Shown here: positions 2 to 10,209 of the stretch, in pieces
Position numbering within the stretch: the first letter of the stretch is position 1
Layout of the letters: every line of letters starts with the position of its first letter
Assembly: GCA_964514075.1 (NCBI GenBank)
Contig: CAZEPH010000056.1
Location: forward strand, 1-10,297
DNA: 10,297 nt
Reading direction: 5' to 3'
Source of the DNA: an uncultured bacterium
GTDB taxonomy: Bacteria > Eisenbacteria > RBG-16-71-46 > CAZEPH01
Position numbers and translations under genes: made by a program
Notes under the pieces: generated by a model
The model's input: the letters and a program-made list of their open reading frames with translations, nothing else
The model's database searches: none
What the model was told of the DNA's origin: nothing

Positions 2-676
2 AATGGCGCGGTGTCCCCGTTATCCGCGCCGTCGCCCTCGCGGATCGTGTCACTCGAACGCCCGGGTGCGGTGCAGAGCGAACTACGCCTCGGGCACACG
101 GCGCCGCCGCGCAATACGTCCGATTACTTCGCGCTCCTCATCATGAACACGATCCTCGGCGGCTGTTTCAACTCGCGTCTCATGCTCAACCTGCGCGAGA
201 GAAACGGCTACACGTACGGAGCCCACAGCCGTCTGGACTTGCGCAAGAGCGGCGGCTTCTTCACGGCCAGCGCGGCAGTGCAGTCGGAGTCGACGGGTCC
301 CGCGATCCACGAGTTCCTCACCGAGTTGACGCGCCTCGTCGAGGACGGCGTGACGGACGCGGAGCTGCAGTACGCACGCGACTACGTGGCCGGCGTGTTC
401 CCGCTGTCGTTCGAGACGACCGGGGACGTCGCGCACCAACTCCTCGCGACCGAGATCCACGACCTTCCCCCGGACTACTTGCCGACGTATCAGGAACGTG
501 TGCGGGCCGTCACGGCGGAGGAAGTGCTCCGTGTGGCGCGCGCGCACGTGCGTCCCGATGCGTTGACTATTTTCGTCCTGGGGGATCGGAGCGTCTTGGG
601 GCGCGAGTGGACCGAACGCTATCCGGTCGACGACGTGTCGCTCACGGACGAGGAGCCCGCTCCATCCACACGTTGA
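2..676 (+). CDS. M16-family (pitrilysin/insulinase-like) zinc peptidase, C-terminal non-catalytic domain; 5' partial, continues upstream of the window
   Basis: The ORF is open to the window edge in frame 2. The translation (GYTYGAHS...FETTGDVAHQLL...DLPPDYLPTYQERVRAVTAEEV) reads like a Peptidase_M16_C domain. GC3-rich codon usage matches the rest of the window. It stops with TGA at 674-676. Confidence 0.65.
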   Translation, partial: NGAVSPLSAPSPSRIVSLERPGAVQSELRLGHTAPPRNTSDYFALLIMNTILGGCFNSRLMLNLRERNGYTYGAHSRLDLRKSGGFFTASAAVQSESTGPAIHEFLTELTRLVEDGVTDAELQYARDYVAGVFPLSFETTGDVAHQLLATEIHDLPPDYLPTYQERVRAVTAEEVLRVARAHVRPDALTIFVLGDRSVLGREWTERYPVDDVSLTDEEPAPSTR

Positions 677-1325
677 GTCCGCGCACGTAGGGCAGATCGC
701 CCTCCTCGCCGGATTCCGGCAGGCGGATGCGCGCGGTCTCCACGATCTCCTCCCCGCGGATCGTGACACCCGCGACGCGACGCGCGGCGAAGACCGTGCG
801 CGCGTACTGCACGTCACGCGGCGTGATGGCGCCCTGCGGCTCGATGCGCCCGTCGCGGAACTCCGCGATGCGAATCGACAAGTACGCGCGTCCGTGCGGG
901 GCGAGTGTGCGCGCGACGGCGGGCAGCATCGCGTCCAGCGCGCCGATCTCGTGCATCGCGCGAAAGGAGACGACGACGTCGCAGTCGTCGGGGAGCCGCT
1001 CGCGCACCGCGTCGCCGGTGAGGAACGTCACGGGCGGTGCAGCGTTCTGCGGCGCCACGAGATCCAGGCCCGTCGCGCGCACGCGCGCGCCGTAATGGAG
1101 CACGAGCGCACGTAACATCCCCCCGTCGCCGCAGCCGATGTCGAGGACGTGCGCGACCGGTTGCCGCGTCAGCACGGCATCCACGAGCGCGTGCAGGGTC
1201 GTGCCTGCGTGCATGTTCTCGAGATAGGAGTCGTACAGCGCGACGTCGTTCTCGCGCTCCTTGAGTCCTGAGGCGTACAGTGCGCGCAGGTGAGCGAGGT
1301 ACTCCTCGCGACGCGGTGCGCTCAC
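642..1325 (-). CDS. Class I SAM-dependent methyltransferase
   Basis: The 227-aa ORF carries the Rossmann motif I VLDIGCGDGG, followed by acidic motif II (ATGLD) and post-I features. Its ATG start overlaps the thyX stop in an ATGA/TGA-type 4-nt overlap (1322-1325), which implies translational coupling. Confidence 0.75.
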   Translation of the reverse strand: MSAPRREEYLAHLRALYASGLKERENDVALYDSYLENMHAGTTLHALVDAVLTRQPVAHVLDIGCGDGGMLRALVLHYGARVRATGLDLVAPQNAAPPVTFLTGDAVRERLPDDCDVVVSFRAMHEIGALDAMLPAVARTLAPHGRAYLSIRIAEFRDGRIEPQGAITPRDVQYARTVFAARRVAGVTIRGEEIVETARIRLPESGEEGDLPYVRGLNVWMERAPRP

Positions 1326-2134
1326 ACCTTGCGGAACGGCGTGTCCGCCACCTCCGACCCGTCCGCGAGCGCGTGCAGCGTGTAGTCACCGAAGAGCGTG
1401 GGCGCCTCGCGCTGCAGGAGGCGCAGACACGCCACGGCGAGTTTGCGAATCTCCGCCTCCGCGTGTTCCGTGGCGCGCATCTCGATGAAGTGCCGCCACG
1501 CGCGTGCGTTCGCGGTCACGACGATCTTCGTTTCCGTGGCGTTCGGCAGAACGGAGCGCGCCGCTTGGCGGGCCATCTTGCGGCGCAGCGTCTTGTCGGG
1601 AATGTGCGTGAGCGCGTCGAAAATGCGCTGCGAGAGCTCGCGGTAGGCCGCGCGCGTCGGCTCCACCGCCGCCGTCCACAGCGCATGTTGCTGTGGGTCC
1701 GCGGCGACGTCGTCGGGTTCGATGAAGCGGCCCTCGGATTCGTCCACATAGCGCTGGCTGAGTTGCGAGTACGCGAAGCCCGCGCGGTGGCGAATGAGCT
1801 CGTGCGTGCACGTACGGCTCACCCCCCAGATGCGCAGCGTGAAGACCGCGTGTTCGAGCACGCTGCCGTGTCCCATCTCGAGGAGATGGCGCACGTACTC
1901 GGCGTTCGTCTTGCGCCCCTTGTTGAACGACATGTAGCAATGCCGCCCGGCGTACTCGACGAGTTTCTCCGCGGCCACGGACGTATCGGTGGACCACGTG
2001 ATGTCTGGATCGTCGACCCACTCCTGCCGCGCGACGAGACGCACCTCGGGTTCGCGGACGATCTGCAGCGGGTGAACGGGCGCCGGGGCGTCGGATGAAT
2101 CGTCGAGAGGCGGCGCGAGCGTGTCGTCGAGCAT
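1322..2134 (-). CDS. thyX: Flavin-dependent thymidylate synthase ThyX
   Basis: It has the diagnostic ThyX motif RHRxxxxxxxS (ELIRHRAGFAYSQLSQRY) plus conserved SRTCTHE and NARAWRHFIEMR segments. I prefer the ATG at 2134 (MLDDTL), which has GAGGA 4-5 nt upstream, over the TTG at 2200, which has no SD and would overlap the LysR gene. Confidence 0.85.
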   Translation of the reverse strand: MLDDTLAPPLDDSSDAPAPVHPLQIVREPEVRLVARQEWVDDPDITWSTDTSVAAEKLVEYAGRHCYMSFNKGRKTNAEYVRHLLEMGHGSVLEHAVFTLRIWGVSRTCTHELIRHRAGFAYSQLSQRYVDESEGRFIEPDDVAADPQQHALWTAAVEPTRAAYRELSQRIFDALTHIPDKTLRRKMARQAARSVLPNATETKIVVTANARAWRHFIEMRATEHAEAEIRKLAVACLRLLQREAPTLFGDYTLHALADGSEVADTPFRKV

Positions 2135-2174
2135 GGGATCCTCGGGGCGGAAGGACGTCGCTGAGAGCGGGAAG

Positions 2175-3125
2175 CTATCGCGTCGCAGAGGGACTCGCAA
2201 GGGCGGCGTCGCGAATGGCGACCACCGCCGGGTGCGTCAGCCGGCGTTCGAGCGAGATGGCGTAGTAGCGCTCGGTCGCGCCCGACACGCGGCCGACGAC
2301 GCGGACGCGATGCCGGCGCGCGATGTCCCGTTCGATGAGTGAGGGGGCCGCAAATGCGCCGACGCCCGCTTCGCCGAACGCTTTGATGAGCGCGCTGTCA
2401 TCGAACTCCCCGACGATCTCCGGCTCGATCATCTCGGAGTTGAGCCACGCGTTGATCGATCCGCGGAGAGAACTCGCCGCGCTTGGCAGCAGCAGTGGTG
2501 CGCCGTTCAGCGATCGCGGAAAGCGCCGGCGCAACCGCTGCGCCAAGACCGGCGCGGCGAAGAGTGTCACGCCGCATTCGACGAGGACGTGATGGTAGGC
2601 GCGCACCCGCAGCGTTGCGGGAACAGGTGCGTCCGTGAGCACGAGGTCGATGTCGTGCGCGGCGAGGCCGCTCACCAGTCGCCGCGACGTGCCCTCCCGC
2701 ACGGTCAAATGCACCGGGCGAGCGATGCGCAGCGCCGGCATGAGCAGGCGGTGGGCGATCGACTTGGGGACCACGTCCGCGACTCCGACCGCGAGTGACA
2801 GCCGGGACGCGGCGTTCGTGTCGGAGAGCGCCTCGAGCAACTCCGCGCCCGCGGCGAAGATTCGTTCCGCGTACGCGAACGCGATGCGCCCGTGGTCGGT
2901 GAGGACGAGGCGTTTTCCACGCCGCTCGAAGAGCGCGAGGCCGAGCACCTGCTCGAGGCGGCGAATCTGCGCGCTCACGGTCGGCTGCGAGAGCCCCAGA
3001 CGATCGCTCGCCTTGGCCACAGTGCCATCGCGGGCGGTCAGCCAGAAATACAGGAGGTGATGGTAGTTCAGCGCGCGGACGCGGCGATCGATCGTACTGA
3101 GAGAAATCCTCATAAGGATGCTCAT
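2175..3125 (-). CDS. LysR-family transcriptional regulator, NhaR-like subfamily
   Basis: The N-terminal wHTH is NYHHLLYFWLTARDGTVAKASDRLGLSQPTVSAQIRRLE. The C-terminal co-inducer domain has EIVGEFDDSALIKAFGEAG, RYYAISLERRLTHPAVVAI and a terminal SPSATR. Each closely parallels E. coli NhaR (NYNHLYYFW; EILGEFDDAALMKAFGA; EYHAIFAERMIQHPAVQRI; SPAVR). An alternative start is the ATG at 3113. Confidence 0.85.
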   Translation of the reverse strand: MSILMRISLSTIDRRVRALNYHHLLYFWLTARDGTVAKASDRLGLSQPTVSAQIRRLEQVLGLALFERRGKRLVLTDHGRIAFAYAERIFAAGAELLEALSDTNAASRLSLAVGVADVVPKSIAHRLLMPALRIARPVHLTVREGTSRRLVSGLAAHDIDLVLTDAPVPATLRVRAYHHVLVECGVTLFAAPVLAQRLRRRFPRSLNGAPLLLPSAASSLRGSINAWLNSEMIEPEIVGEFDDSALIKAFGEAGVGAFAAPSLIERDIARRHRVRVVGRVSGATERYYAISLERRLTHPAVVAIRDAALASPSATR

Positions 3126-3217
3126 ATTATCTTATGTTTTCTTGAACGCCAGCCTCCGATGATCTGTCTCGACGGACGCCGCAAGGGGCGGCGCAGTCGC
3201 CGAATCAGGAGGACAGC
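3105..3217. promoter_or_regulatory. Divergent promoter/operator region between the LysR regulator and hpf, with an AT-rich island
   Basis: A 40-bp stretch (cataaggatgctcatattatcttatgttttcttgaa) is far more AT-rich than the ~70% GC background. It contains TTGAAC at 3142-3147. There is a consensus AGGAGG SD at 3205-3210, 8 nt before the hpf ATG. LysR regulators classically bind such divergent regions. Confidence 0.35.
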
Positions 3218-3559
3218 ATGCACGTCAACATCCGCGGAGCCGGTCGCGCTGTGTCGAAGGACATTCGTGAGTACATCGATCGGCGGTTGTCGTTCGCCTT
3301 GTCCCGTTTCTCGAACCGGGTTCATCGAGTGGCCGTGTACGTCGGGGACCTGAACGGCCCGAAAGGGGGACAGGACCAATGGTGTCACATCGTGGCGCGG
3401 TTGCACACGGGCACGCCGCTGGTGATCGTCGACCGCGACGCGCAGGTGACGACGTTGATCGACCGGGCGGCGGATCGCCTGGGACACGCGGTGTCGCGGC
3501 GCATCACGCGCTTGCGGGACGTGGGCCGGCACGCGGTGGTGATGGAGGGCGCGCGATAG
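3218..3559 (+). CDS. hpf: Ribosome hibernation promoting factor / ribosome-associated inhibitor (short HPF/RaiA/YfiA family, sigma-54 modulation protein fold)
   Basis: The 113-aa protein has the family signature: MxxNIxG..xx(I/V)xxxIR-Y-xx-Lxxxxxrf.....VxVxV at the N-terminus, and D....lidraadrL..q-srr..klrd at the C-terminus. It is preceded by a strong AGGAGG RBS. Confidence 0.7.
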   Translation: MHVNIRGAGRAVSKDIREYIDRRLSFALSRFSNRVHRVAVYVGDLNGPKGGQDQWCHIVARLHTGTPLVIVDRDAQVTTLIDRAADRLGHAVSRRITRLRDVGRHAVVMEGAR

Positions 3560-3593: not shown

Positions 3594-4379
3594 TTAGGGG
3601 GGAAGCCGTGCGACCAGGCGGTCGCACAGTGGCGGCGCCAGTTTGTTGAGCCATACGATCAGTCGTCCACCGCGGGACACGACGTCCTCTCGTGTCCCGC
3701 GTTCGGTGTCGCGGACGATGCGCGTCGCGACGTCCGAGGGCCGCGCCATCGTGGCGCGTCCGCCGGGGCCGTGTTCGGCGGGGAAGCCGGCGTTCACGAA
3801 GAAGTCGGTGTCCGTGCGTCCCGGACAGACGAGGATGACGCGCACACCGGAGTCCGCGAGTTCCACGCGCCAGCTTTCCGCGAGACCGGCGAGCGCAAAC
3901 TTCGTCGCGCAGTACACCGAGGCGTGCGGAAAGCCGCGGCGTCCGGCGACCGATGACACGAGCACGATGCACCCGCGGGCGCGCTCTAGGTGCGGCAGCG
4001 CCACGCGCGTGAGGCGGATCGGGGCGAGAAGGTTGGTTTCGACGAGACGCACGGCGTCCGCGTCCGTCGTGGAGGCGATGTCGCGCTTGAGCCCGACCCC
4101 GGCGTTGTGCACGAGAACGTCGAGGCGTCCGTAGCGGTCCACGGCCTGCGCGACGCACGTCTCCGCGGCGGACGGGTCACGGAGGTCCGCGCAAACGGCG
4201 TGCGCACGACCTCCGCCGGACGTGACCCCGCGCACGAGAGCGTCCAGCGCGTCACCGCGCCGCGCCACGCACACGACCGCCGCGCCGCGCGCGGCCCACG
4301 CCTCCGCCGTTGCACGGCCGATCCCGCTGGATGCGCCCGTCACCATCACCACGCTGTCCGCCCACAGAGAGTGCGCCAT
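3594..4379 (-). CDS. Short-chain dehydrogenase/reductase (classical SDR, NAD(P)-dependent oxidoreductase)
   Basis: The start is the ATG at 4379 (MAHSLWADSVVMVTGASSGIGRATA), giving TGxxxGxG at residues 14-21. It also has NAG (VHNAGVG), the catalytic S...YxxxK (SVYCATK) and a PG motif (VCPGRTDT). GGAGGAGG lies 6-7 nt upstream of the ATG. The 165 codons upstream of this ATG in the 3594..4874 ORF are low-complexity, run antisense to the SPFH gene and are rejected. Confidence 0.85.
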   Translation of the reverse strand: MAHSLWADSVVMVTGASSGIGRATAEAWAARGAAVVCVARRGDALDALVRGVTSGGGRAHAVCADLRDPSAAETCVAQAVDRYGRLDVLVHNAGVGLKRDIASTTDADAVRLVETNLLAPIRLTRVALPHLERARGCIVLVSSVAGRRGFPHASVYCATKFALAGLAESWRVELADSGVRVILVCPGRTDTDFFVNAGFPAEHGPGGRATMARPSDVATRIVRDTERGTREDVVSRGGRLIVWLNKLAPPLCDRLVARLPP

Positions 4380-4422: not shown

Positions 4423-4462
4423 TTGACAGGGGGTGCGATCATAATGATATCATTGCGATATC
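4423..4462 (+). promoter_or_regulatory. Putative sigma70-type promoter (TTGACA -35) with an overlapping perfect 12-bp palindrome AATGATATCATT (candidate operator) upstream of the SPFH-RHH-sigma operon
   Basis: TTGACA lies at 4423-4428. The AT-rich -10 candidates are cataat (4440-4445) and tatcat (4448-4453). AATGATATCATT at 4443-4454 is its own reverse complement. It is embedded in a 22-bp imperfect dyad ATCATAATGATATCATTGCGAT (4438-4459) and flanked by GCGATC / GCGATATC. A very strong RBS AAAGGAGGA (4467-4475) precedes the ATG at 4480. Confidence 0.4.
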
Positions 4463-4479
4463 TAAGAAAGGAGGATTCC

Positions 4480-5349
4480 ATGAACAAGGAATTCATTCGT
4501 GGTGCGGTGGCCGGCGGCGTCGCGTTCGTTGCGCTGCTGGCGATTGTGGTGCTGACGATCGTGGCGTTCGTGCACGGCGTGCGCGAGCACCACCTCCCGA
4601 CGATTCTCGGCGCGGTCGTGATCTTCACGCTGACGCTCGTGTGTGCGAACGGTTTCATCGTCGTGAACCCGAACGAGGGGCACGTCGTGCAGCTGTTCGG
4701 CACGTACACCGGAACGCTCAAGACTCCGGGCATCTGGTTCGTCAACCCGCTCTCGACGCATCGCCGCGTGTCGTTGCGCGTGCGCAACTTCGAGACGCCG
4801 AAGCTGAAAGTGAACGACCACGACGGCAACCCAATCGAAATCGCCGCCGTCGTTGTGTGGAAGGTGGTCGACACCGCGGAGGCCGTGTTCGAGGTCGACA
4901 GCTACGAGAACTTCGTGAACGTGCAGAGCGAGTCGGCGCTGCGGAACCTGGCCACGCTGCATCCGTACGACGCGCACGAAGACGGCCAGATGGCGCTGCG
5001 CAGTCATCCGCAGGAAACGGCGGAGCGACTTCGGGGCGAAATCCAGGACCGTCTGACCAAGGCGGGCGTGGAAGTAATCGAAGCACGCATCAGCCACCTC
5101 GCCTACGCGCAGGAAATCGCGAGCGTGATGCTGCAGCGGCAAGCGGCGAGTGCGATCATCGCCGCGCGCTCGCGCATCGTCGACGGCGCGGTGGGCATGG
5201 TGGAGATGGCGCTCGCGAAGCTCTCCGAGCGCAACGTCGTGCAGCTGGATGACGAACGGCGCGCGGCGATGGTGAGCAACTTGCTCGTCGTGCTGTGCAG
5301 CGACAAGCACGCGCAGCCCGTCGTGAACACCGGAACGTTGTACTCCTAG
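4480..5349 (+). CDS. SPFH/band-7 (stomatin/prohibitin/flotillin-like) membrane protein
   Basis: The 289-aa protein has an N-terminal hydrophobic anchor ([20 protein letters not shown] ... [16 protein letters not shown]). An SPFH core follows ([34 protein letters not shown]...[13 protein letters not shown]), then a C-terminal Ala/Gln-rich coiled-coil-like segment. The strong RBS supports the start at 4480. The in-frame 4222-4479 part of the ORF-track entry is rejected as 5' over-extension. Confidence 0.85.
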
Positions 5350-5359
5350 GAGCGGCATC

Positions 5360-5551
5360 GTGGCCGAACGAAAGCCATTTCTCCTGCGGCTCGATCCGGC
5401 TACGCTCGATGCATTGCAGCGCTGGGCGGCGGATGATCTCCGCAGCCTGAACGGGCAGATCGAGTTCGTGCTGCGGCGCGCGCTGGCGGATGCCGGCCGC
5501 GCGCCGCGCGGAGGAAAGGGTGACGGACGGAGGGAATCGCCACGTCGGTGA
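5360..5551 (+). CDS. Ribbon-helix-helix (Arc/MetJ/CopG-like) DNA-binding protein, 63 aa
   Basis: KPFLLRLDPATLDALQRWAADDLRSLNGQIEFVLRRAL fits the beta-strand/helix A/helix B pattern of Arc-like RHH proteins, followed by a basic disordered tail. The GTG start at 5360 has TAGGAG 8 nt upstream and lies 10 nt after the SPFH stop. Its TGA stop overlaps the GTG start of the ECF sigma gene (GTGA, 5548-5551). Confidence 0.6.
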   Translation: MAERKPFLLRLDPATLDALQRWAADDLRSLNGQIEFVLRRALADAGRAPRGGKGDGRRESPRR

Positions 5552-6195
5552 TCGGTAGGTTCCGGCGCACGGAGGTCGAGCACCTCGACCGCGAAGACGC
5601 CGAGATCGTCCGCCGCACTCTCGCCGGTGACCTGCGTGCATTCGACGCCCTCGTGCACCGACACCACGCGGACCTGCTGCGTGCCCTGCGCACGATCACC
5701 CGAAACCTCGAAGATGCCGAAGATGCGGCCCAGGACGCGTTCGTGCGCGCGTTCCAGGCGCTAGACCGGTTCGACCAGGAGCGCCCGTTTCGCCCGTGGC
5801 TGTGGACGATTGGGATCCGGCTTGCCCTGCACCGCATCGCGCGGAAGGAGACGAAGAACGTATCGCTCGAAGATGCGCGGCCTGGCGCCGAAGGAATCGC
5901 GCGCGACGATCGCGCGCACATGGCCGACGCGACGGGTGTGCAGCATCTTGACGAAACGTTGCTCCGGCGCGATCTGGACCGCGCGATGGACCGGCTCGAC
6001 GCGCATCATCGTGCGGTGCTGCAGTTGTGCGTGATCGAGCAGAAGACATATGAAGAAGCCGCGGAGATCCTCGAGGTGCCGAAAGGGACCATCATGTCGC
6101 GATTGAGCCGCGCGCGGCTGCGCCTGCGCGAGTTCTTGTGCGACGTCCCTGCACCCATCGAGGCCGCTGGAGGCGACGATGACCGAGCGATGTGA
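5548..6195 (+). CDS. ECF (group 4) sigma-70 family RNA polymerase sigma factor
   Basis: Region 2 (LRAFDALVHRHHADLLRALRTITRNLEDAEDAAQDAFVRAFQALDRFDQERPFRPWLWTIGIRLALHRIRK) and region 4 (RAVLQLCVIEQKTYEEAAEILEVPKGTIMSRLSRARLRLREFL) are both clear. It is 215 aa, with a GTG start coupled to the upstream RHH gene. Confidence 0.85.
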   Translation: MIGRFRRTEVEHLDREDAEIVRRTLAGDLRAFDALVHRHHADLLRALRTITRNLEDAEDAAQDAFVRAFQALDRFDQERPFRPWLWTIGIRLALHRIARKETKNVSLEDARPGAEGIARDDRAHMADATGVQHLDETLLRRDLDRAMDRLDAHHRAVLQLCVIEQKTYEEAAEILEVPKGTIMSRLSRARLRLREFLCDVPAPIEAAGGDDDRAM

Positions 6196-7129
6196 CGACG
6201 TCCTCTGGCAGCTGAGCCCGTACATCGATGGCGCGCTCTCGCCGGACGAAATGCAGGGCATCACACGCCACGTGGCCACGTGCACCTCGTGCGCGCGCGC
6301 GCTCGAGGAACTGAAGAGCGCGGATCGTCTGGTCGTGGACGAGTACGGGCGCGCGGTGGCGGGGGAGCGCGAGCAAGCGAACCGCGCGCGCACGCTACAG
6401 GCGCTGCACGCCGCGGGCGCGCCCGCGTGGGCGAAGCCCCGCCGCGCGCGCGCTCCGCTGTGGCGGTGGGCGGGTGTGCTCGTGCCTGTTGCGGCCGCGG
6501 TCGTGATCGTGCTGCGCGTGCAGCCGTGGTCGGAGGGAACGCGCGAGGTGCTGCGCACCGCGACCGACGCCACGCCGTTGCCGGAGACAACCGCGGCAGC
6601 GCCGGGGCCGGCCGGGACGACCGAGACCGCGCGCGTGACAACTCGATCTGCCCCTCCGGCGGTTGGAATGCCCGTGCCGGTGCACGACGAGGAGTTTCCC
6701 GCGGCAGCGACGCCGGCCGAGCAGCAGGCACTTCCCGAGACACAGGCACACGTGAGCGACGCGCCCGAACGAGTCGTTGAATGGCGCGACGGCCGCGCGG
6801 ATTCGGCAGGCGGGAAGTCGCTCTCGCTTCGCGGTGGGCGCGCGGAGGAGAGCGTGCACCTGACCACTCCCGTCGCGGCCGCTCCACGCGCGAAGGAAAC
6901 AGCCGATGCGCTCGCGGGGGACGCATCGGCAGCCGCAGAGTACCGGATCCGCGGCGACGATCTGTTTGCGCGTGCCGTCCGTACGACCAACGCGAGTGAG
7001 GCGCGTCGCACGTATCGTGAAGCTGCCGACATGTATCTTCTCGCGCTGCGGACGGACTCGAGTGCCGCGCAGGTCGATACGGCTCGCCTGTTCAACGCGC
7101 TGCGTCTCAGCACCACGCCGCCGCCGTAG
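6179..7129 (+). CDS. Membrane-spanning zinc-finger (ZAS-type) anti-sigma factor with an extracytoplasmic C-terminal region
   Basis: The N-terminus carries a complete ZAS signature, C5-x25-H31-x3-C35-x2-C38 (ERC...HVATCTSCARAL). There is a single TM helix (WRWAGVLVPVAAAVVIVL), then an Ala/Pro/Thr-rich linker and a ~90-aa helical C-terminal module. The start overlaps the 3' end of the sigma gene by 17 nt, which is the classic sigma/anti-sigma arrangement. Confidence 0.75.
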   Translation: MTERCDDVLWQLSPYIDGALSPDEMQGITRHVATCTSCARALEELKSADRLVVDEYGRAVAGEREQANRARTLQALHAAGAPAWAKPRRARAPLWRWAGVLVPVAAAVVIVLRVQPWSEGTREVLRTATDATPLPETTAAAPGPAGTTETARVTTRSAPPAVGMPVPVHDEEFPAAATPAEQQALPETQAHVSDAPERVVEWRDGRADSAGGKSLSLRGGRAEESVHLTTPVAAAPRAKETADALAGDASAAAEYRIRGDDLFARAVRTTNASEARRTYREAADMYLLALRTDSSAAQVDTARLFNALRLSTTPPP

Positions 7130-7223
7130 GGAATACACAGCGCACTTTCCGCATACGTCCTCCTGACACAACGGACTCGCACACCCTCATCTCGCCCGCG
7201 AGGTCGTCTAGCCGGAGGACATC

Positions 7224-9500
7224 ATGAGAGCGCTTACGAATTGCATCATCCTGGTCGCCATCGTGGTCATCGCGCAGTTCGAGGGCCGGCCCGCGTTCAC
7301 GCGAACCCGCATCGACGTGATCCCGCCCACGCAACCTCCCATCAGAGTGATTGAACCGCCCGCGTACACAGACGGTGTCGAGACCCGCGCCTCTGTTCGC
7401 GCAACACTCGACGGGATGATCCTGGACGTTCGCTGCGAGCATCTCTTCACAAATAGCGGCACCGTCCAACAAGAAGTGCAGGTGCTCCTGCCCATTCCGC
7501 CCGACGCGGTGGTGACCGACGGCGTGCTTCTCGCAGACGGGCGCGAGTATCCCGCGGAGGTCATGGATGCGGCGGAGGCGCGGCGCATTTACGAGGACAT
7601 CGTGCGCCGGCGGCGCGATCCCGCGCTCATCGAGTTGGTCGGGCATGGACTCATTCGCCTGTCTGCGTTTCCGATTCCGCCGGGCGGTTCGCGCACCGTG
7701 ACGTACCGGTACCATCAATCGGTCGCGACGCAGGAGGATGCGGTGCGCCTGCACTTTCCGTTCGCGACGCTCCGCGGTCTCGGGCAGGACGGCCCGATCG
7801 ACTTCCGCCTCGACGTCACCGGACAGGAGCCGATCGTTGCGGTGTACTCGCCGAGTCACTCGGTGGACATCGACCGCAAGAGCGCGCACGCCGCACGCGT
7901 GACCTACGAGGCGCGTTCCGCGCGTCAAGACGATGCACTGGAGCTGATCGTGCGGCGCAGCGAGCGTCCGATCGGAGTGGACCTCCGCACCGCGCCGGGG
8001 AGCGACGAGGACGACTACTTTCTGTTGGCTGTGTCGCCCGGGTGGGACCTGCTGCAACGCCGTCATCGCACACCGGAGACCGCGATCTTCGTGCTCGACA
8101 CGTCCGGGTCGATGGACGGCGAGAAGTTCATCCAAGCTCGGACCGCTCTCCATCGATTCATCGACGATCTGGACGAGAGCGATCGCTTCAACGTGGTTGC
8201 CTTCTCCGATGGAGCGCACTCGCTATTTGAGGACGGCCCGCACGTCGCCACGCGCCGCGAGCGGTCCGAGGCGCGCGAGTGGATCGATCGCCTCGACACC
8301 GGCGGAAGCACCGCGATCGGTGAAGCGCTCGACACGGCGTGCCAAGCCGCCTGGGAGCCCACGATGATCCTCTTTCTCACGGACGGCCGCCCCACGGTCG
8401 GTGAGAAACGACACGACGCTTTGGTGCGGCGTGCGCGTCGAGCGGGAGAGCGCGTGCGCTTCTTTGCGTTCGGCGTCGGCTACGACGTGGACGCACGACT
8501 GCTCGACGATCTCGCGCAACACGGCGGCGGTGGTGCAGCGCGCTACGTCCGCTCGGGCGAGAACGTGGATGCGGCCGTGACGGAATTGCACCGCCGTGTC
8601 GCGCACCCGTGTGCGCGGCGCGTGCGCGTTACGATCGACGGCGCCATGACGCACGATGTGTTCCCGCGCGCAGGCGATCGCGACCTGTACGCGGGCGAGC
8701 CGTTGTTGTTGGCCGGGCGCGTGAGGCCCGACGCGCGCCACGCCGTCGTGCGTCTCACCGCGGAGTCGCCGAGCGGTGAACCGCTGAGCGGCGAGTGGCG
8801 CGTCGACTTCGATGATCCGCACGCTCGCAGTGCATCCGTTCCGGTTCTGTGGGCCGCGCGCAAAGCCGCTTCTCTGCTCGACGACCTGCGGCGTTCGGGG
8901 CGCGATCCGCGGACGGTGCGTGAGCTGCGCGCACTCGCAGCGCGCTACGGCATTCTCACGGAGGAGGTGGCGTTGCTCGCGCGCGACGAAGATGCGGTGG
9001 CGCTCAGCCGGCCGATCGTGCGTTCGGGTCGCGCGCACGTCCCGCCGAGCGTCGGCGTGCCGGCGCCTGTCGCGCCGCAGGACGTACCGTCGTTCACTCG
9101 AGGGGGACGCGCGAACGAGGTCACGTTCCACATCGATGCAGCCGCCGAAGCCTCTCGACTACGCGAGTCCAAGGCCGCTGGCGCGGTGACGGATGACCGC
9201 GCGGCGCAGTCGACGCGCGTGGCGGGCGGCGTGACGTTCGAAGTGCACGACGGCGTGTGGGTCGATCAGCGACTCGCGCACTCCCTGCGGCCAGCCGGTC
9301 GTACGACGAAGATCCGTGCCTACGGCGCATCGTACTTCACGCTCGTCGCGCGAAGCCCGAAGCTGGTGGAGTGGTTCCATGTCGGCGAACACGTGCGGAT
9401 TCTGCTTCCGGGCTTGATTCTGGAGGTGGCGCCGGACGGGGCGGATGCTCTGACGGAGCAGCAACTCGACGACATCCTCGCTGCGGTGAAGAAGTCTTAG
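7224..9500 (+). CDS. Membrane-anchored/secreted VIT (vault/inter-alpha-trypsin) domain + von Willebrand factor type A (vWA) domain protein
   Basis: An N-terminal signal/anchor (MRALTNCIILVAIVVIAQF) is followed by a VIT-like segment (LLPIPPDAVVTDGVLLADGREYPAEVMDAAEARRIYEDIVRRRRDPALIELVGHGLIRLSAFPIPPGGSRTVTYRY). The vWA domain has a full MIDAS: DTSGS in IFVLDTSGSMDG, T in GGSTAIGEAL and D in ILFLTDGRPT. A ~280-aa C-terminal extension follows. GGAGGA RBS at 7215-7220, 4 nt before the ATG at 7224. Confidence 0.85.
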   Translation: MRALTNCIILVAIVVIAQFEGRPAFTRTRIDVIPPTQPPIRVIEPPAYTDGVETRASVRATLDGMILDVRCEHLFTNSGTVQQEVQVLLPIPPDAVVTDGVLLADGREYPAEVMDAAEARRIYEDIVRRRRDPALIELVGHGLIRLSAFPIPPGGSRTVTYRYHQSVATQEDAVRLHFPFATLRGLGQDGPIDFRLDVTGQEPIVAVYSPSHSVDIDRKSAHAARVTYEARSARQDDALELIVRRSERPIGVDLRTAPGSDEDDYFLLAVSPGWDLLQRRHRTPETAIFVLDTSGSMDGEKFIQARTALHRFIDDLDESDRFNVVAFSDGAHSLFEDGPHVATRRERSEAREWIDRLDTGGSTAIGEALDTACQAAWEPTMILFLTDGRPTVGEKRHDALVRRARRAGERVRFFAFGVGYDVDARLLDDLAQHGGGGAARYVRSGENVDAAVTELHRRVAHPCARRVRVTIDGAMTHDVFPRAGDRDLYAGEPLLLAGRVRPDARHAVVRLTAESPSGEPLSGEWRVDFDDPHARSASVPVLWAARKAASLLDDLRRSGRDPRTVRELRALAARYGILTEEVALLARDEDAVALSRPIVRSGRAHVPPSVGVPAPVAPQDVPSFTRGGRANEVTFHIDAAAEASRLRESKAAGAVTDDRAAQSTRVAGGVTFEVHDGVWVDQRLAHSLRPAGRTTKIRAYGASYFTLVARSPKLVEWFHVGEHVRILLPGLILEVAPDGADALTEQQLDDILAAVKKS

Positions 9501-9549: not shown

Positions 9550-10209
9550 CTAGTGCGGCGCCCACGACGGGTGCGACGTAAACAACCCGTCGACGAATCC
9601 GATCTGCGCCATGACGTACACGCCGAACGCGAGACTCAACACGCCTGTCGCGAGGCGCAGCTTCGGCGCGAACGCATCGAACTGCCGCGCCGCCACACTC
9701 GCAGGCACGGCGAACGCGGTAGTGATCACCATCATCCCGAGGATCGTGCCCGCGCCGAACACGACGAGATACGCGGATGCGGCAAGGGGATCGCGCACCG
9801 TCGCGAGAACGAGCAGCGCGACCGCGGCGCTTCCCGCGAGGCCGTGCACCAATCCGAGCACGAACGCACGAACCGACGTACCGCCCGCCTCGGCGCGCGA
9901 CGACAAGAAACCCCGCTGTCCCGCGATGTTCCAGAGTCCGACGAGCGTGAGCGCGATGCCCACGGCGAATTCGAGGGACAAGCCCACACGCGCGGGCACG
10001 GTGAGGTTCAAGAGGATGATTGCTGCACCCACGACCGTGATCGTGAGTGTGTGTCCCAATCCCCACAGCGCACCGATTGTCGCCGACGGCAGGATGCGCT
10101 TGCTGCGTGCGGCGATCGCCGAGACGGCAACGACGTGATCGGCGTCCGTCGCGTGCCGCATGCCAAGAACGAGTCCGAGGCCGATCACCGTGAGAAAGTT
10201 CGAGTCCAT
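9550..10209 (-). CDS. NicO/NiCoT-superfamily (HoxN/HupN/NixA-like) putative nickel/cobalt transporter, short form
   Basis: The 219-aa polytopic membrane protein has RHATDADHVVAVSAI, matching the NiCoT signature RHA(F)DADH(I)AAID (the HX4DH motif) in its first TM. It also has LWGLGHTLTITVV, matching the second NiCoT motif (GHSxVV). GAGGAG RBS 7 nt upstream of the ATG at 10209. It is about half to two-thirds the length of canonical HoxN. Confidence 0.6.
   Translation of the reverse strand: MDSNFLTVIGLGLVLGMRHATDADHVVAVSAIAARSKRILPSATIGALWGLGHTLTITVVGAAIILLNLTVPARVGLSLEFAVGIALTLVGLWNIAGQRGFLSSRAEAGGTSVRAFVLGLVHGLAGSAAVALLVLATVRDPLAASAYLVVFGAGTILGMMVITTAFAVPASVAARQFDAFAPKLRLATGVLSLAFGVYVMAQIGFVDGLFTSHPSWAPH

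Follow-up and report, generated by a model that had tools for sequence, protein, structure and literature searches.

The window analyzed here is a whole MAG contig of 10,297 bp, met once (one contig, one sample). An ORF check indicated five plus-strand genes, encoding an SPFH membrane protein, a small ribbon-helix-helix (RHH) protein, an ECF sigma factor, a ZAS anti-sigma factor, and an exported VIT/vWA protein, with junctions of 10, −4, −17, and 94 nt: the RHH ORF starts with GTG 10 nt past the SPFH stop, the GTG of the sigma gene and the TGA of the RHH gene share GTGA as a 4-nt overlap, the anti-sigma and sigma genes share 17 nt, and a gap of 94 nt separates the anti-sigma gene from the VIT/vWA gene. 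The array, domains, and spacing given in a preliminary description were borne out by the ORF check and domain scans; its start coordinate of 4423 falls on the TTGACA of the SPFH promoter, the SPFH ORF itself starting at 4480. The features are as follows, the SPFH-RHH part (4423-5551) being referred to as module A and the sigma-ZAS-VIT/vWA part (5532-9500) as module B.

4423..4463, plus strand: promoter and putative operator of SPFH-RHH; layout common to SPFH homologues from unrelated contexts, with RHH as the candidate operator-binding protein
4480..5349, plus strand: SPFH (Band 7) membrane protein, 289 aa (Pfam Band_7, E=2.9e-26)
5360..5551, plus strand: Arc-like RHH protein, 63 aa; family profile matches Arc; partner gene of the SPFH subfamily
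5532..5563, plus strand: ECF-type motif before sigma, GGGAATC-N15-CGGTAGGTTCC, conserved at the equivalent place in orthologous loci
5548..6195, plus strand: ECF sigma factor, 215 aa, sigma2 and sigma4 (Pfam and NCBIfam sigma70-ECF)
6179..7129, plus strand: membrane-spanning ZAS anti-sigma factor, 316 aa (zf-HC2, E=1.2e-7; zinc motif; one TM)
7129..7157, plus strand: second ECF-type motif, GGGAATA-N16-GCATAC, in the 94-nt gap before VIT/vWA
7224..9500, plus strand: exported VIT and vWA (MIDAS) protein, 758 aa (Pfam VIT 6e-16, VWA 6e-19)

A scan of the window detected four terminator-like sites in total versus 2.3 expected, all of them intragenic, and no intrinsic terminator separates any two of the five genes; the tight packing is therefore genuine. 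As a sign of a conserved five-gene unit, the packing does not hold. The data establish which genes are present, how each module is conserved, and what the two DNA motifs are and where they lie; we consider it likely that the region consists of two autonomous conserved modules that became neighbors in this lineage via the insertion of one beside the other.

The conservation of module B was apparent from the orthologous VIT/vWA loci (46-56% identity), which are from Eisenbacteria-type MAGs. A ZAS orthologue was present upstream on the same strand in all eight distinct loci, and a sigma orthologue in all seven for which the contig extends over the sigma region, although part of this conservation is shared descent because most loci of the clade come from related MAGs. 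The trio of sigma, ZAS, and VIT/vWA was also present in at least two distant lineages (L054 and L083; VIT/vWA about 32% identical, GC 55%). The sister sigma clade (L176 and L177; 43% identical) kept the motif and ZAS, and no VIT/vWA gene was found within its flanks; the linkage of sigma to VIT/vWA is therefore clade-limited. SPFH and RHH were present only in the window among the 8 orthologous and 77 more distant VIT/vWA loci. Furthermore, the closest syntenic locus (L001), which retains the flanking genes of the window, has an M16 peptidase, methyltransferase, ThyX, and SDR and then directly sigma-ZAS-VIT/vWA. As sigma lies directly 3' of SDR in this locus, SPFH-RHH is an insertion in the lineage of the window. 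Taken together, sigma, ZAS, and VIT/vWA are supported as a conserved functional group; the "single functional unit" proposed earlier thus stands for these three genes, which recur in the eight orthologous loci, and falls for SPFH and RHH, which adjoin them in the window only.

Module A was conserved in its own right, recurring as a pair in differing genomic contexts. In each of the 70 metagenomic loci that continue for 150 nt or more beyond SPFH, the RHH gene was located downstream of it, and the protein was 58-73% identical to the small ORF 3' of SPFH in every locus examined; the 63-aa RHH gene is an obligate partner of this SPFH subfamily. Among 80 metagenomic and 7 other SPFH-RHH loci, VIT/vWA genes were absent, and an ECF gene, unrelated to that of the window, was nearby in only four. 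The SPFH protein, the ATG of which has GAAAGGAGGA just upstream, has two N-terminal hydrophobic segments (4-37 and 37-64) as a hairpin anchor, and its homologues number hundreds at 58-76% identity, with a length of exactly 289 aa in nearly all; its kinship with stomatin and QmcA is distant (E about 2e-5). The RHH assignment is the weakest of the domain calls, the Pfam RHH_5 and Arc matches of the small ORF being below threshold (RHH_5 E=0.034 from the single sequence). A six-member family profile covered the whole P22 Arc fold (1arq, E=4e-4; tandem pArc, 4e-8), and the family comprised 1743 cluster representatives at E≤1e-3.

The promoter of module A has TTGACA at 4423-4428 and TATCAT at 4448-4453, with TG upstream of the −10, and it was missed by a consensus scan because of its 19-nt spacer. 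Three boxes with the consensus TGAyATCA and 11-bp phasing (TGCGATCA at 4434-4441, TGATATCA at 4445-4452, and CGATATCT at 4456-4463) span this −10. An exact TGATATCA was present within 90 nt upstream of SPFH in 21 of the 24 loci with enough sequence, and the flanking boxes retain the 11-bp spacing in SPFH upstream regions. An 11-bp repeat of palindromic boxes is the geometry of Arc-type dimer-of-dimers binding, and the boxes are, by this analogy, most likely a putative autorepressor operator. Thus, a sigma-70-type promoter would drive the hairpin-anchored SPFH scaffold and the Arc-like protein, which would most likely bind the three boxes over the −10 and repress its own operon.

The window resembles the Arc and Mnt systems of P22 in that the RHH family profile spans the whole beta-alpha-alpha Arc fold and the palindromic boxes recur every 11 bp across the promoter, whereas it has three boxes in the putative operator instead of two half-sites, a conserved basic Pro/Arg tail on the RHH protein, and an RHH gene located 3' of SPFH and not in a phage immunity or toxin-antitoxin locus as for Arc/Mnt-type autorepressors. 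SPFH-NfeD operons (stomatin/YbbK-YbbJ, YqfA-YqeZ, and flotillin YuaG-YuaF; PMC2636767) likewise pair an N-anchored SPFH protein with a small partner in a fixed two-gene operon, but the partner there is an NfeD membrane protein or protease, while that in the window is a cytoplasmic Arc-like DNA-binding protein and no NfeD features were found in the window. For SPFH subfamilies 3, 4, and 6-12, the same paper, in which the term "operon partner" does not occur, gives no NfeD homologue.

The sigma factor of module B matched Sigma70_r2 (9e-17) and r4_2 (4e-13) in the Pfam domain scan, which found no region 3, and scored 96 bits against the NCBIfam sigma70-ECF cut-off of 42.9. It met no NCBIfam equivalog cut-off (best PRK11922, 120 bits versus 204). 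Its nearest solved structures were SigW and AlgU-type ECFs (about 1e-18, with the alignment starting from residue 15), and its orthologues formed 43 clusters at 48-64% identity. The anti-sigma factor combines C5 and H31-x3-C35-x2-C38 with a single TM segment (about 92-118), so that the zinc finger and membrane span described earlier were confirmed; the "extracytoplasmic domain" was not, this part being mostly a low-complexity Ala/Thr/Arg/Pro linker followed by a tail of about 55 aa that is conserved, helical, and only weakly TPR-like (match in one member, E=0.011). This architecture is common to all orthologues and to L054 and L083. In the VIT/vWA protein, the MIDAS residues D292, S294, S296, T363, and D387 are shared by all orthologues, and the N-terminus is a hydrophobic signal or anchor, with classical signal peptides in orthologues. 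Its sequence matched ITIH4 in the PDB (2e-25), and its AF2 model (mean pLDDT 76.7) gave ITIH1 as the top Foldseek match (6fpy, E=6e-31, about 600 columns). As an exported protein of adhesion type, it would probably bind a ligand or surface outside the cytoplasm in a metal-dependent manner.

An ECF-type motif with the consensus GGGAAT-N16/17-(C/G)(A/G)TA(A/G) lies ahead of both the sigma and VIT/vWA genes. The sigma-proximal copy was present in all seven orthologous loci with the sigma upstream region available, in the sister clade, and in L054 and L083, the latter two having their own matched motif pairs (GGGAAT-N16/17-TGTATG and xGTAxC) at the sigma and VIT/vWA positions. Before VIT/vWA, a strict motif lies 50-70 nt 5' of the start in six loci (L001, L002, L004, L005, L016, and L018) and a relaxed one in L003 and the window, whose copy joins a perfect −35 to a degenerate −10 (CATAC). 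The motif stays by VIT/vWA even where other genes part it from sigma-ZAS (L002, L003, and L005). Across 139 kb of orthologous loci, the strict motif matched 13 times, always on the coding strand directly upstream of sigma or VIT/vWA; about 0.9 matches would be expected from the background, in which both strands of 1.10 Mb from other loci gave 7. The internal ECF promoter anticipated before 7224 therefore exists as a conserved predicted motif, with a second copy before sigma. Because the motif precedes both genes, the VIT/vWA protein is most likely, as judged from sequence, a direct target of sigma, and with a sigma-type promoter motif in front of its gene it would be the output of the circuit.

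Which protein binds which motif, what signal induces the system, and what the VIT/vWA protein does are inferred; position and analogy are what link the two motifs to their regulators. In the proposed circuit, the ZAS protein would hold sigma inactive at the membrane until an envelope or thiol-redox signal frees it, and free sigma would transcribe from the GGGAAT-type promoters, resulting in autoregulation through the copy ahead of its own gene and in expression of the exported ITIH-like MIDAS protein as the conserved output. The window is like rpoE-rseA-rseB (E. coli sigma-E), SigW-RsiW, and SigR-RsrA in having an ECF sigma gene followed by an overlapping anti-sigma gene, an H-x3-C-x2-C zinc motif in a single-pass anti-sigma, a putative autoregulatory ECF promoter with a GGAAT-like −35, and an adjoining gene for a periplasmic or exported protein. 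It differs from them in the outer part of the anti-sigma, a low-complexity linker with a short helical tail, and in its third gene, which encodes an ITIH-like protein with its own sigma-type promoter motif in place of RseB. The domain order VIT-vWA-C-terminal region is that of ITIH1/ITIH4 and of bacterial sortase/exosortase targets (TIGR03788 and TIGR04477), but TIGR03788 scored the protein at 200 bits, far under its cut-off of 551, no LPXTG, PEP-CTERM, or other sorting tail was found on it, residues 664-758 (about 95 aa) make up an additional C-terminal domain, and ECF control of its gene is predicted. As in FecI-FecR-FecA, a membrane-spanning sigma regulator adjoins a gene for an extracytoplasmic protein, but this neighbor is a soluble exported protein, and Pfam and NCBIfam scans found no FecR domain, TonB-dependent receptor or transducer, or N-terminal signaling domain; the analogy to FecR-receptor signaling made earlier thus fails. 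The suggested phage-sensing role found no defense-system features behind it either, with no PADLOC model above noise and a CARF model on sigma as the sole match (E=0.005).

In the window genome only, the RHH and sigma genes overlap at stop and start with no terminator between them, and transcription running on from the SPFH promoter probably provides mRNA for sigma and anti-sigma. It is possible, though we would not favor it, that this amounts to a lineage-specific operon fusion, in which sigma and anti-sigma come mainly from the SPFH-promoter transcript via GTGA coupling and the Arc-like repressor sets the basal ECF level; this is compatible with two modules and adds a local rewiring. The sigma-proximal motif overlaps the final RHH codons and straddles GTG 5548, the sole canonical sigma start in the window that retains the conserved EDAEIVRR helix. 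A transcript from the sigma-proximal promoter would therefore lack this codon, which, lying between the −35 and −10, is present only on transcripts from further upstream. The fusion is known from one contig in one sample, however, and several orthologues without SPFH-RHH upstream have the same problem, with no canonical sigma start 3' of the motif or a sole ATG inside the −35 GGAATG; the way around it may thus be a different one, for instance a start codon of non-canonical type.

Somewhat less probable is that the VIT/vWA protein, besides being a target, is an extracytoplasmic partner that would bind the ZAS tail as RseB binds RseA and modulate ZAS stability in a feedback loop. The tail is the sole conserved extracytoplasmic element of the anti-sigma and co-occurs with VIT/vWA even in L054 and L083, and the MIDAS site is intact. 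ECF289, which has a DUF3520-vWA anti-sigma (PMC7826278), is a precedent for an ECF system tied to an extracytoplasmic vWA domain; in the window, however, the vWA is in a separate exported protein with VIT, the anti-sigma is a plain ZAS, and no DUF3520 match was reported for the VIT/vWA protein in Pfam scans. A similar ZAS tail also occurs in the sister clade, which has no VIT/vWA gene nearby.

It is unlikely that the GGGAAT...GATAG element is, instead of a promoter, a conserved piece of coding sequence for an N-terminal extension of sigma or a site bound by another factor. The sigma-proximal element keeps to the reading frame of the sigma ORF in every case, a hint that some genomes may translate it; its distance to EDAELVRR changes in whole codons only (17, 18, 19, or 22), and many gene calls begin at an ATG inside it. 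On the other hand, the DNA around the second copy is clearly non-coding: this copy follows the anti-sigma stop or unrelated genes and has the strong SD-ATG of VIT/vWA 50-70 nt further on. The peptide encoded between the two elements is not conserved, and the hexamers and spacing fit general ECF promoters (−35 GGAAT/C, 16-17 nt, −10 CGTA-like).

Least credible is one conserved envelope surveillance machine of five stoichiometrically co-expressed genes: the tight, terminator-free junctions and the ability of SPFH proteins to organize membrane proteases and sensors would fit it, but the synteny check set beforehand already contradicts it and refutes the five-gene unit by its own criterion, as the five-gene order did not recur and all five genes occurred together in the window only, in none of about 175 related loci viewed from either side, and the two modules differ in the conserved type of promoter that they carry, with TGATATCA occurring once in the window, not in front of module B, and the GGGAAT motif at 5532 and 7129 only, not before module A.

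The preliminary description had proposed that five plus-strand genes in the window form one envelope surveillance or signalling cassette. The window, a complete MAG contig of 10,297 bp whose proteins were found once in the protein collection, has a G+C content of 66–71% across its entire length and carries the following genes:

11–676, plus strand, M16 peptidase C-terminus
642–1325, minus strand, methyltransferase
1322–2200, minus strand, ThyX
2175–3125, minus strand, LysR regulator
3218–3559, plus strand, S30AE/HPF-like protein
3594–4379, minus strand, short-chain dehydrogenase (SDR)
4480–5349, plus strand, SPFH protein (Pfam Band_7)
5360–5551, plus strand, 63-aa RHH ORF, after a 10-nt gap
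5548–6195, plus strand, ECF sigma factor, sharing a GTGA overlap with the RHH ORF
6179–7129, plus strand, ZAS anti-sigma factor, overlapping the sigma gene by 17 nt
7224–9500, plus strand, VIT-vWA protein, after a 94-nt gap
9550–10209, minus strand, NicO-like membrane protein (nickel/cobalt transporter family, sub-threshold)

The five genes and their junctions agreed exactly with those first described, and the SPFH, sigma r2/r4, zf-HC2, VIT, and VWA domain calls were well over the Pfam thresholds. An Rfam scan of the entire window matched no RNA family, and a terminator scan returned only intragenic hairpins, at chance level.

The gene neighbourhood was surveyed for conservation from both the VIT/vWA side and the SPFH side, and homologues of the five genes were found not to be syntenic as a set, all five occurring together, among the loci surveyed, in the window alone. 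The VIT/vWA homologues comprise an orthologue clade at 46–56% identity, followed by a sharp drop to a large background at about 27–38%. The orthologous loci (n = 8 distinct: the window, L001–L005, L016, and L018) are from Candidatus Eisenbacteria and Zixibacteria MAGs. The orthologous ZAS gene lies upstream of VIT/vWA on the same strand in all eight, and the orthologous sigma gene is present in all seven whose contig includes the sigma region; no SPFH or RHH gene was found within 8–9 kb in any of the eight other than the window. The arrangement in L001 is decisive for the separation of the modules, as this locus has the M16, methyltransferase, ThyX, and SDR neighbourhood of the window, yet its SDR gene is followed directly by the sigma gene. 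Among 77 distant VIT/vWA loci, mostly from Chloroflexota and Planctomycetota, none contained SPFH or RHH; a sigma–ZAS pair lies immediately upstream of VIT/vWA in three (L032, L054, and L083), and it is downstream instead in L034, as is a sigma gene in L041. Conversely, VIT/vWA was absent from all 80 metagenomic SPFH loci, and an ECF sigma gene was near SPFH in four of these 80, being non-orthologous in all four and convergent in two. In two metagenomic SPFH–RHH loci, L120 (7900–9705, minus strand) and L125 (7725–9544, minus strand), a non-orthologous ECF sigma and ZAS pair is convergent with SPFH–RHH about 1 kb downstream of it; this is the sole other proximity of SPFH to ECF sigma–ZAS genes seen, and it may be due to chance, ECF genes being so abundant.

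Because the conserved modules are separate in both synteny surveys, the five-gene order is a one-off juxtaposition, and SPFH–RHH is a separate, widespread, self-contained module. The single integrated cassette is therefore not supported. The grouping of the sigma factor, anti-sigma factor, and VIT/vWA protein is supported, and it gains precision from a promoter consensus and a regulon, both predicted. Two further proposals were also dropped: phage defence, as a PADLOC scan of all five proteins gave no meaningful match (the sole one being CARF on the sigma factor, E = 0.005, 14.7 bits), and FecR-type trans-envelope signalling, as none of the proteins matched a FecR or TonB-receptor family. At 5500–5551 in the window, the −35 element and spacer of a sigma-type promoter supply the final six codons of the RHH gene (GRRESPRR*), an arrangement suggesting that SPFH–RHH was joined to the sigma region at a point slightly upstream of 5530, with the RHH ORF simply continuing to the first stop. 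Genes packed so closely that stops and starts overlap are not proof of a conserved functional unit; here the packing reflects one insertion event.

The SPFH protein scored 93 bits against the Band_7 cut-off of 23.6 and has an N-terminal membrane anchor, with two hydrophobic segments within residues 4–64. Its family is very uniform, the Acidobacteriota and Eisenbacteria matches being 58–76% identical and nearly all exactly 289 aa long. A small ORF 58–73% identical to the 63-aa protein of the window follows SPFH in every SPFH context from L009 to L015, and the RHH partner is encoded in all 70 of the 80 metagenomic loci that extend at least 150 nt downstream, being 1.4 kb away in one. An exhaustive search for the small-protein family returned 1743 cluster representatives (50% identity clusters) at E ≤ 1e-3; the cluster names for this protein, the sigma factor, and the anti-sigma factor were only "hypothetical protein" or blank. 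Taken alone, the RHH sequence of the window is sub-threshold (14.3 bits; RHH_5 cut-off, 26), and Pfam RHH_5 was matched in six of six family members and Arc in five of six, with a best E of about 1e-4. A profile of the six members matched P22 Arc over the whole fold (1arq, E = 4e-4; tandem pArc, 4e-8). The structure 9pio in the PDB ("Arc family DNA-binding protein") came from work on ClpXP substrates and was irrelevant. A role of the RHH protein as a toxin–antitoxin component was rejected, as its fixed partner is the upstream 289-aa SPFH membrane protein and not a toxin fold. This fixed RHH partner also distinguishes the module from SPFH–NfeD operons, and no match to the NfeD family was found beside the SPFH gene of the window. 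A survey of SPFH proteins gives no partner for its minor subfamilies (PMC2636767), and our literature search for SPFH with Arc, CopG, or RHH found no paper describing the SPFH–RHH pair.

Conservation of the region upstream of SPFH extends over unrelated contexts and differing G+C contents: TTGACA is followed by three TGAyATCA-like boxes every 11 bp, the candidate boxes spanning 4434–4463 in the window. The middle box, TGATATCA, is perfectly palindromic and encloses the −10 element (TATCAT). Exact TGATATCA was found at most 90 nt from the SPFH start in 21 of the 24 loci with enough sequence, and it occurs once in the window, at 4445. A consensus promoter scan of the window returned no sigma-70 promoter, the SPFH promoter being missed because of its 19-nt spacer. 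The natural reading of this pattern would be an array of Arc-like dimers on one helix face over the −10 element; that is, the Arc-like RHH protein would bind the phased boxes there, and SPFH–RHH would be an autorepressed operon. The module is very widespread, with about 1,700 RHH clusters (50% identity) and an SPFH protein that is 58–76% identical from phylum to phylum, and its clear candidate operator makes it a simple entry point to the role of one bacterial SPFH subfamily.

As for the other module, the only Pfam domains in the sigma factor are Sigma70_r2 (35–100) and r4_2 (141–193), which fits the layout of ECF (group 4) sigma factors, proteins of about 200 aa that lack regions 1.1 and 3. 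It scored 96 bits against TIGR02937 (cut-off 42.9) and aligned end to end with the SigW, AlgU, and CnrH structures, and all NCBIfam equivalog and subfamily models fell under their cut-offs, the best being PRK11922 (120 against 204). The anti-sigma factor matched zf-HC2 (E = 1.2e-7) and carries C5, H31, C35, and C38, an H-x3-C-x2-C arrangement plus an upstream Cys, which is the sequence signature of ZAS (zinc-binding) anti-sigma factors encoded directly after their sigma gene. In all these anti-sigma factors, the ZAS motif is accompanied by a single TM segment, an outer linker of low complexity and variable length, and, at the C-terminus, a conserved helical tail of about 55 aa with the consensus R-W-R-x-I-G-D-L-W-E-W...A-Y...D...R-V. 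The tail is faintly TPR-like, and a Pfam search of the tails detected no domain beyond one weak TPR match. The outer region in the window consists of 20% Ala, 11% Thr, 10% Arg, and 9% Pro. In the orthologous locus L004, frameshifts seem to affect the genes for the anti-sigma factor and the M16 peptidase: the C-terminal half of the anti-sigma factor translates into Arg/Pro-rich nonsense, and its true tail can be read in a different frame (about 8640–8800). These frameshifts are probably a long-read assembly error and not biology.

The features of the VIT/vWA protein are a signal or anchor sequence, Pfam VIT (56–163) and VWA (288–446) domains, and a complete MIDAS (DxSxS...T...D), of which D292, S294, S296, T363, and D387 are invariant. 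The top fold match of its AF2 model (mean pLDDT 76.7) was inter-alpha-inhibitor heavy chain 1 (ITIH1; E = 6e-31, about 600 columns), and the best PDB sequence match was ITIH4. Pfam searches with the C-terminal 306 and 96 residues matched nothing in the 450–660 region or the extra C-terminal domain (664–758). The protein did not reach the cut-off of TIGR03788 (marine proteobacterial sortase target; 200.7 bits against 551.65), and neither a sorting motif nor a TM segment is present at its C-terminal end (...LDDILAAVKKS).

ECF promoters have a GGAAC/T-like −35 and a CGT/GTA-like −10 element, 16–17 nt apart. By aligning the regions upstream of the sigma genes and of the VIT/vWA genes, we found the motif GGGAAT-N16/17-(C/G)(A/G)TA(A/G), often running on as GGTTCC, before both. 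The strict pattern had 13 matches in 139 kb of orthologous loci, all 13 lying on the coding strand and immediately ahead of sigma or VIT/vWA. With 7 matches in 1.10 Mb of other loci (both strands) as background, about 0.9 would be expected. The copies in the window are GGGAATCGCCACGTCGGTGATCGGTAG before sigma (5532–5558) and GGGAATACACAGCGCACTTTCCGCATAC before VIT/vWA (7129–7157), the latter with a degenerate −10. Since the hexamers and spacing are of the ECF-promoter type, the copy at 5532 is read as the predicted autoregulatory promoter and that at 7129 as the predicted target promoter, which agrees with the earlier expectation of an internal ECF promoter before 7224. The motif stays just upstream of VIT/vWA even where genes intervene after ZAS, and its position would mark the VIT/vWA protein as the output of the circuit. 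The intervening genes encode a 90-aa FlgD_ig protein in L002 (8624–8896), two large He_PIG/Rax2-like proteins in L003 (1648–6878), and an opposite-strand pair of MutL-like and TPR proteins in L005 (4020–8843). Two of the distant loci with the complete trio, both with a G+C content of about 55%, have matched pairs of their own: GGGAATAAT-N-TGTATGA twice in L054, and GGAATAA-N17-TGTAGC and GGTATC in L083. In a sister sigma clade (43% identical; L176 and L177), the motif is present before sigma, and no VIT/vWA gene was found in the flanks. In the place expected for VIT/vWA, past one opposite-strand gene after sigma–ZAS, these two loci have a conserved multi-pass membrane protein of about 670–680 aa (L176, 11292–13340; L177, 5571–7577) with no Pfam match and no evident sigma-type motif upstream.

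The sigma-proximal motif straddles GTG 5548, the sole canonical start that keeps the conserved N-terminal helix; structural homologues align with the sigma factor from residue 15. No canonical start lies downstream of the sigma-type promoter in the window (5532–5610), L001, L002, L004, or L016. In L001 (6864–6960) the only canonical sigma start is upstream of the motif. L002 (6356–6445), L004 (6686–6750), and L016 (2219–2365) have no ATG, GTG, or TTG from the preceding stop to EDAELVRR. The motif is always in frame with the sigma ORF, with indels downstream of it being whole codons, and in about ten other orthologues the only ATG is that of GGA-ATG inside the −35 element. Many orthologue gene calls start at this ATG, and others six codons before EDAELVRR. 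The sigma factor may be made from upstream transcripts as well as from its own promoter, its translation may use non-canonical starts, or the motif segment may be dual-purpose. In the window, with GTG 5548 inside the motif, a sigma mRNA that can be translated has one obvious origin, read-through from the SPFH promoter; such feeding of sigma would be a local rewiring and not a conserved design.

By analogy, the sigma–ZAS–VIT/vWA module would act as an ordinary pair of ECF sigma and ZAS anti-sigma factors that has a single target next to it; among textbook layouts, rpoE-rseA-rseB is the closest. It differs from the ECF289 type, in which the anti-sigma factor itself is fused to DUF3520-vWA (PMC7826278). 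For an ECF sigma factor from a candidate phylum, the module predicts a promoter consensus and one conserved target, which together make a minimal regulon, and it could tie bacterial ITIH-like VIT/vWA proteins to an envelope or redox stress response. We consider it rather unlikely that SPFH–RHH is a membrane-state switch wired before the ECF pair and, separately, that the VIT/vWA protein is an RseB-like ligand of the anti-sigma tail; no precedent for either role was found in the literature searched, nor did a search for VIT/vWA with ECF sigma factors find a paper describing this module. In such a switch, the SPFH scaffold would sequester or release the Arc-like repressor, and the resulting two-tier cascade in this organism would run from membrane perturbation through RHH derepression and sigma/anti-sigma supply to the ITIH-like exported protein.

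The NicO-like gene is convergent with VIT/vWA in the window, and a NicO-weak gene is also downstream in L001 (13941–15626, minus strand); the synteny here may be conserved, or the NicO-like gene may be functionally linked to the metal-dependent MIDAS protein. The LysR and S30AE/HPF-like genes between ThyX and SDR in the window (2175–3559) are extra compared with L001 (4815–6725), where a ParA-like gene instead separates the methyltransferase from ThyX, and the neighbourhood around ThyX and SDR seems to accumulate insertions.
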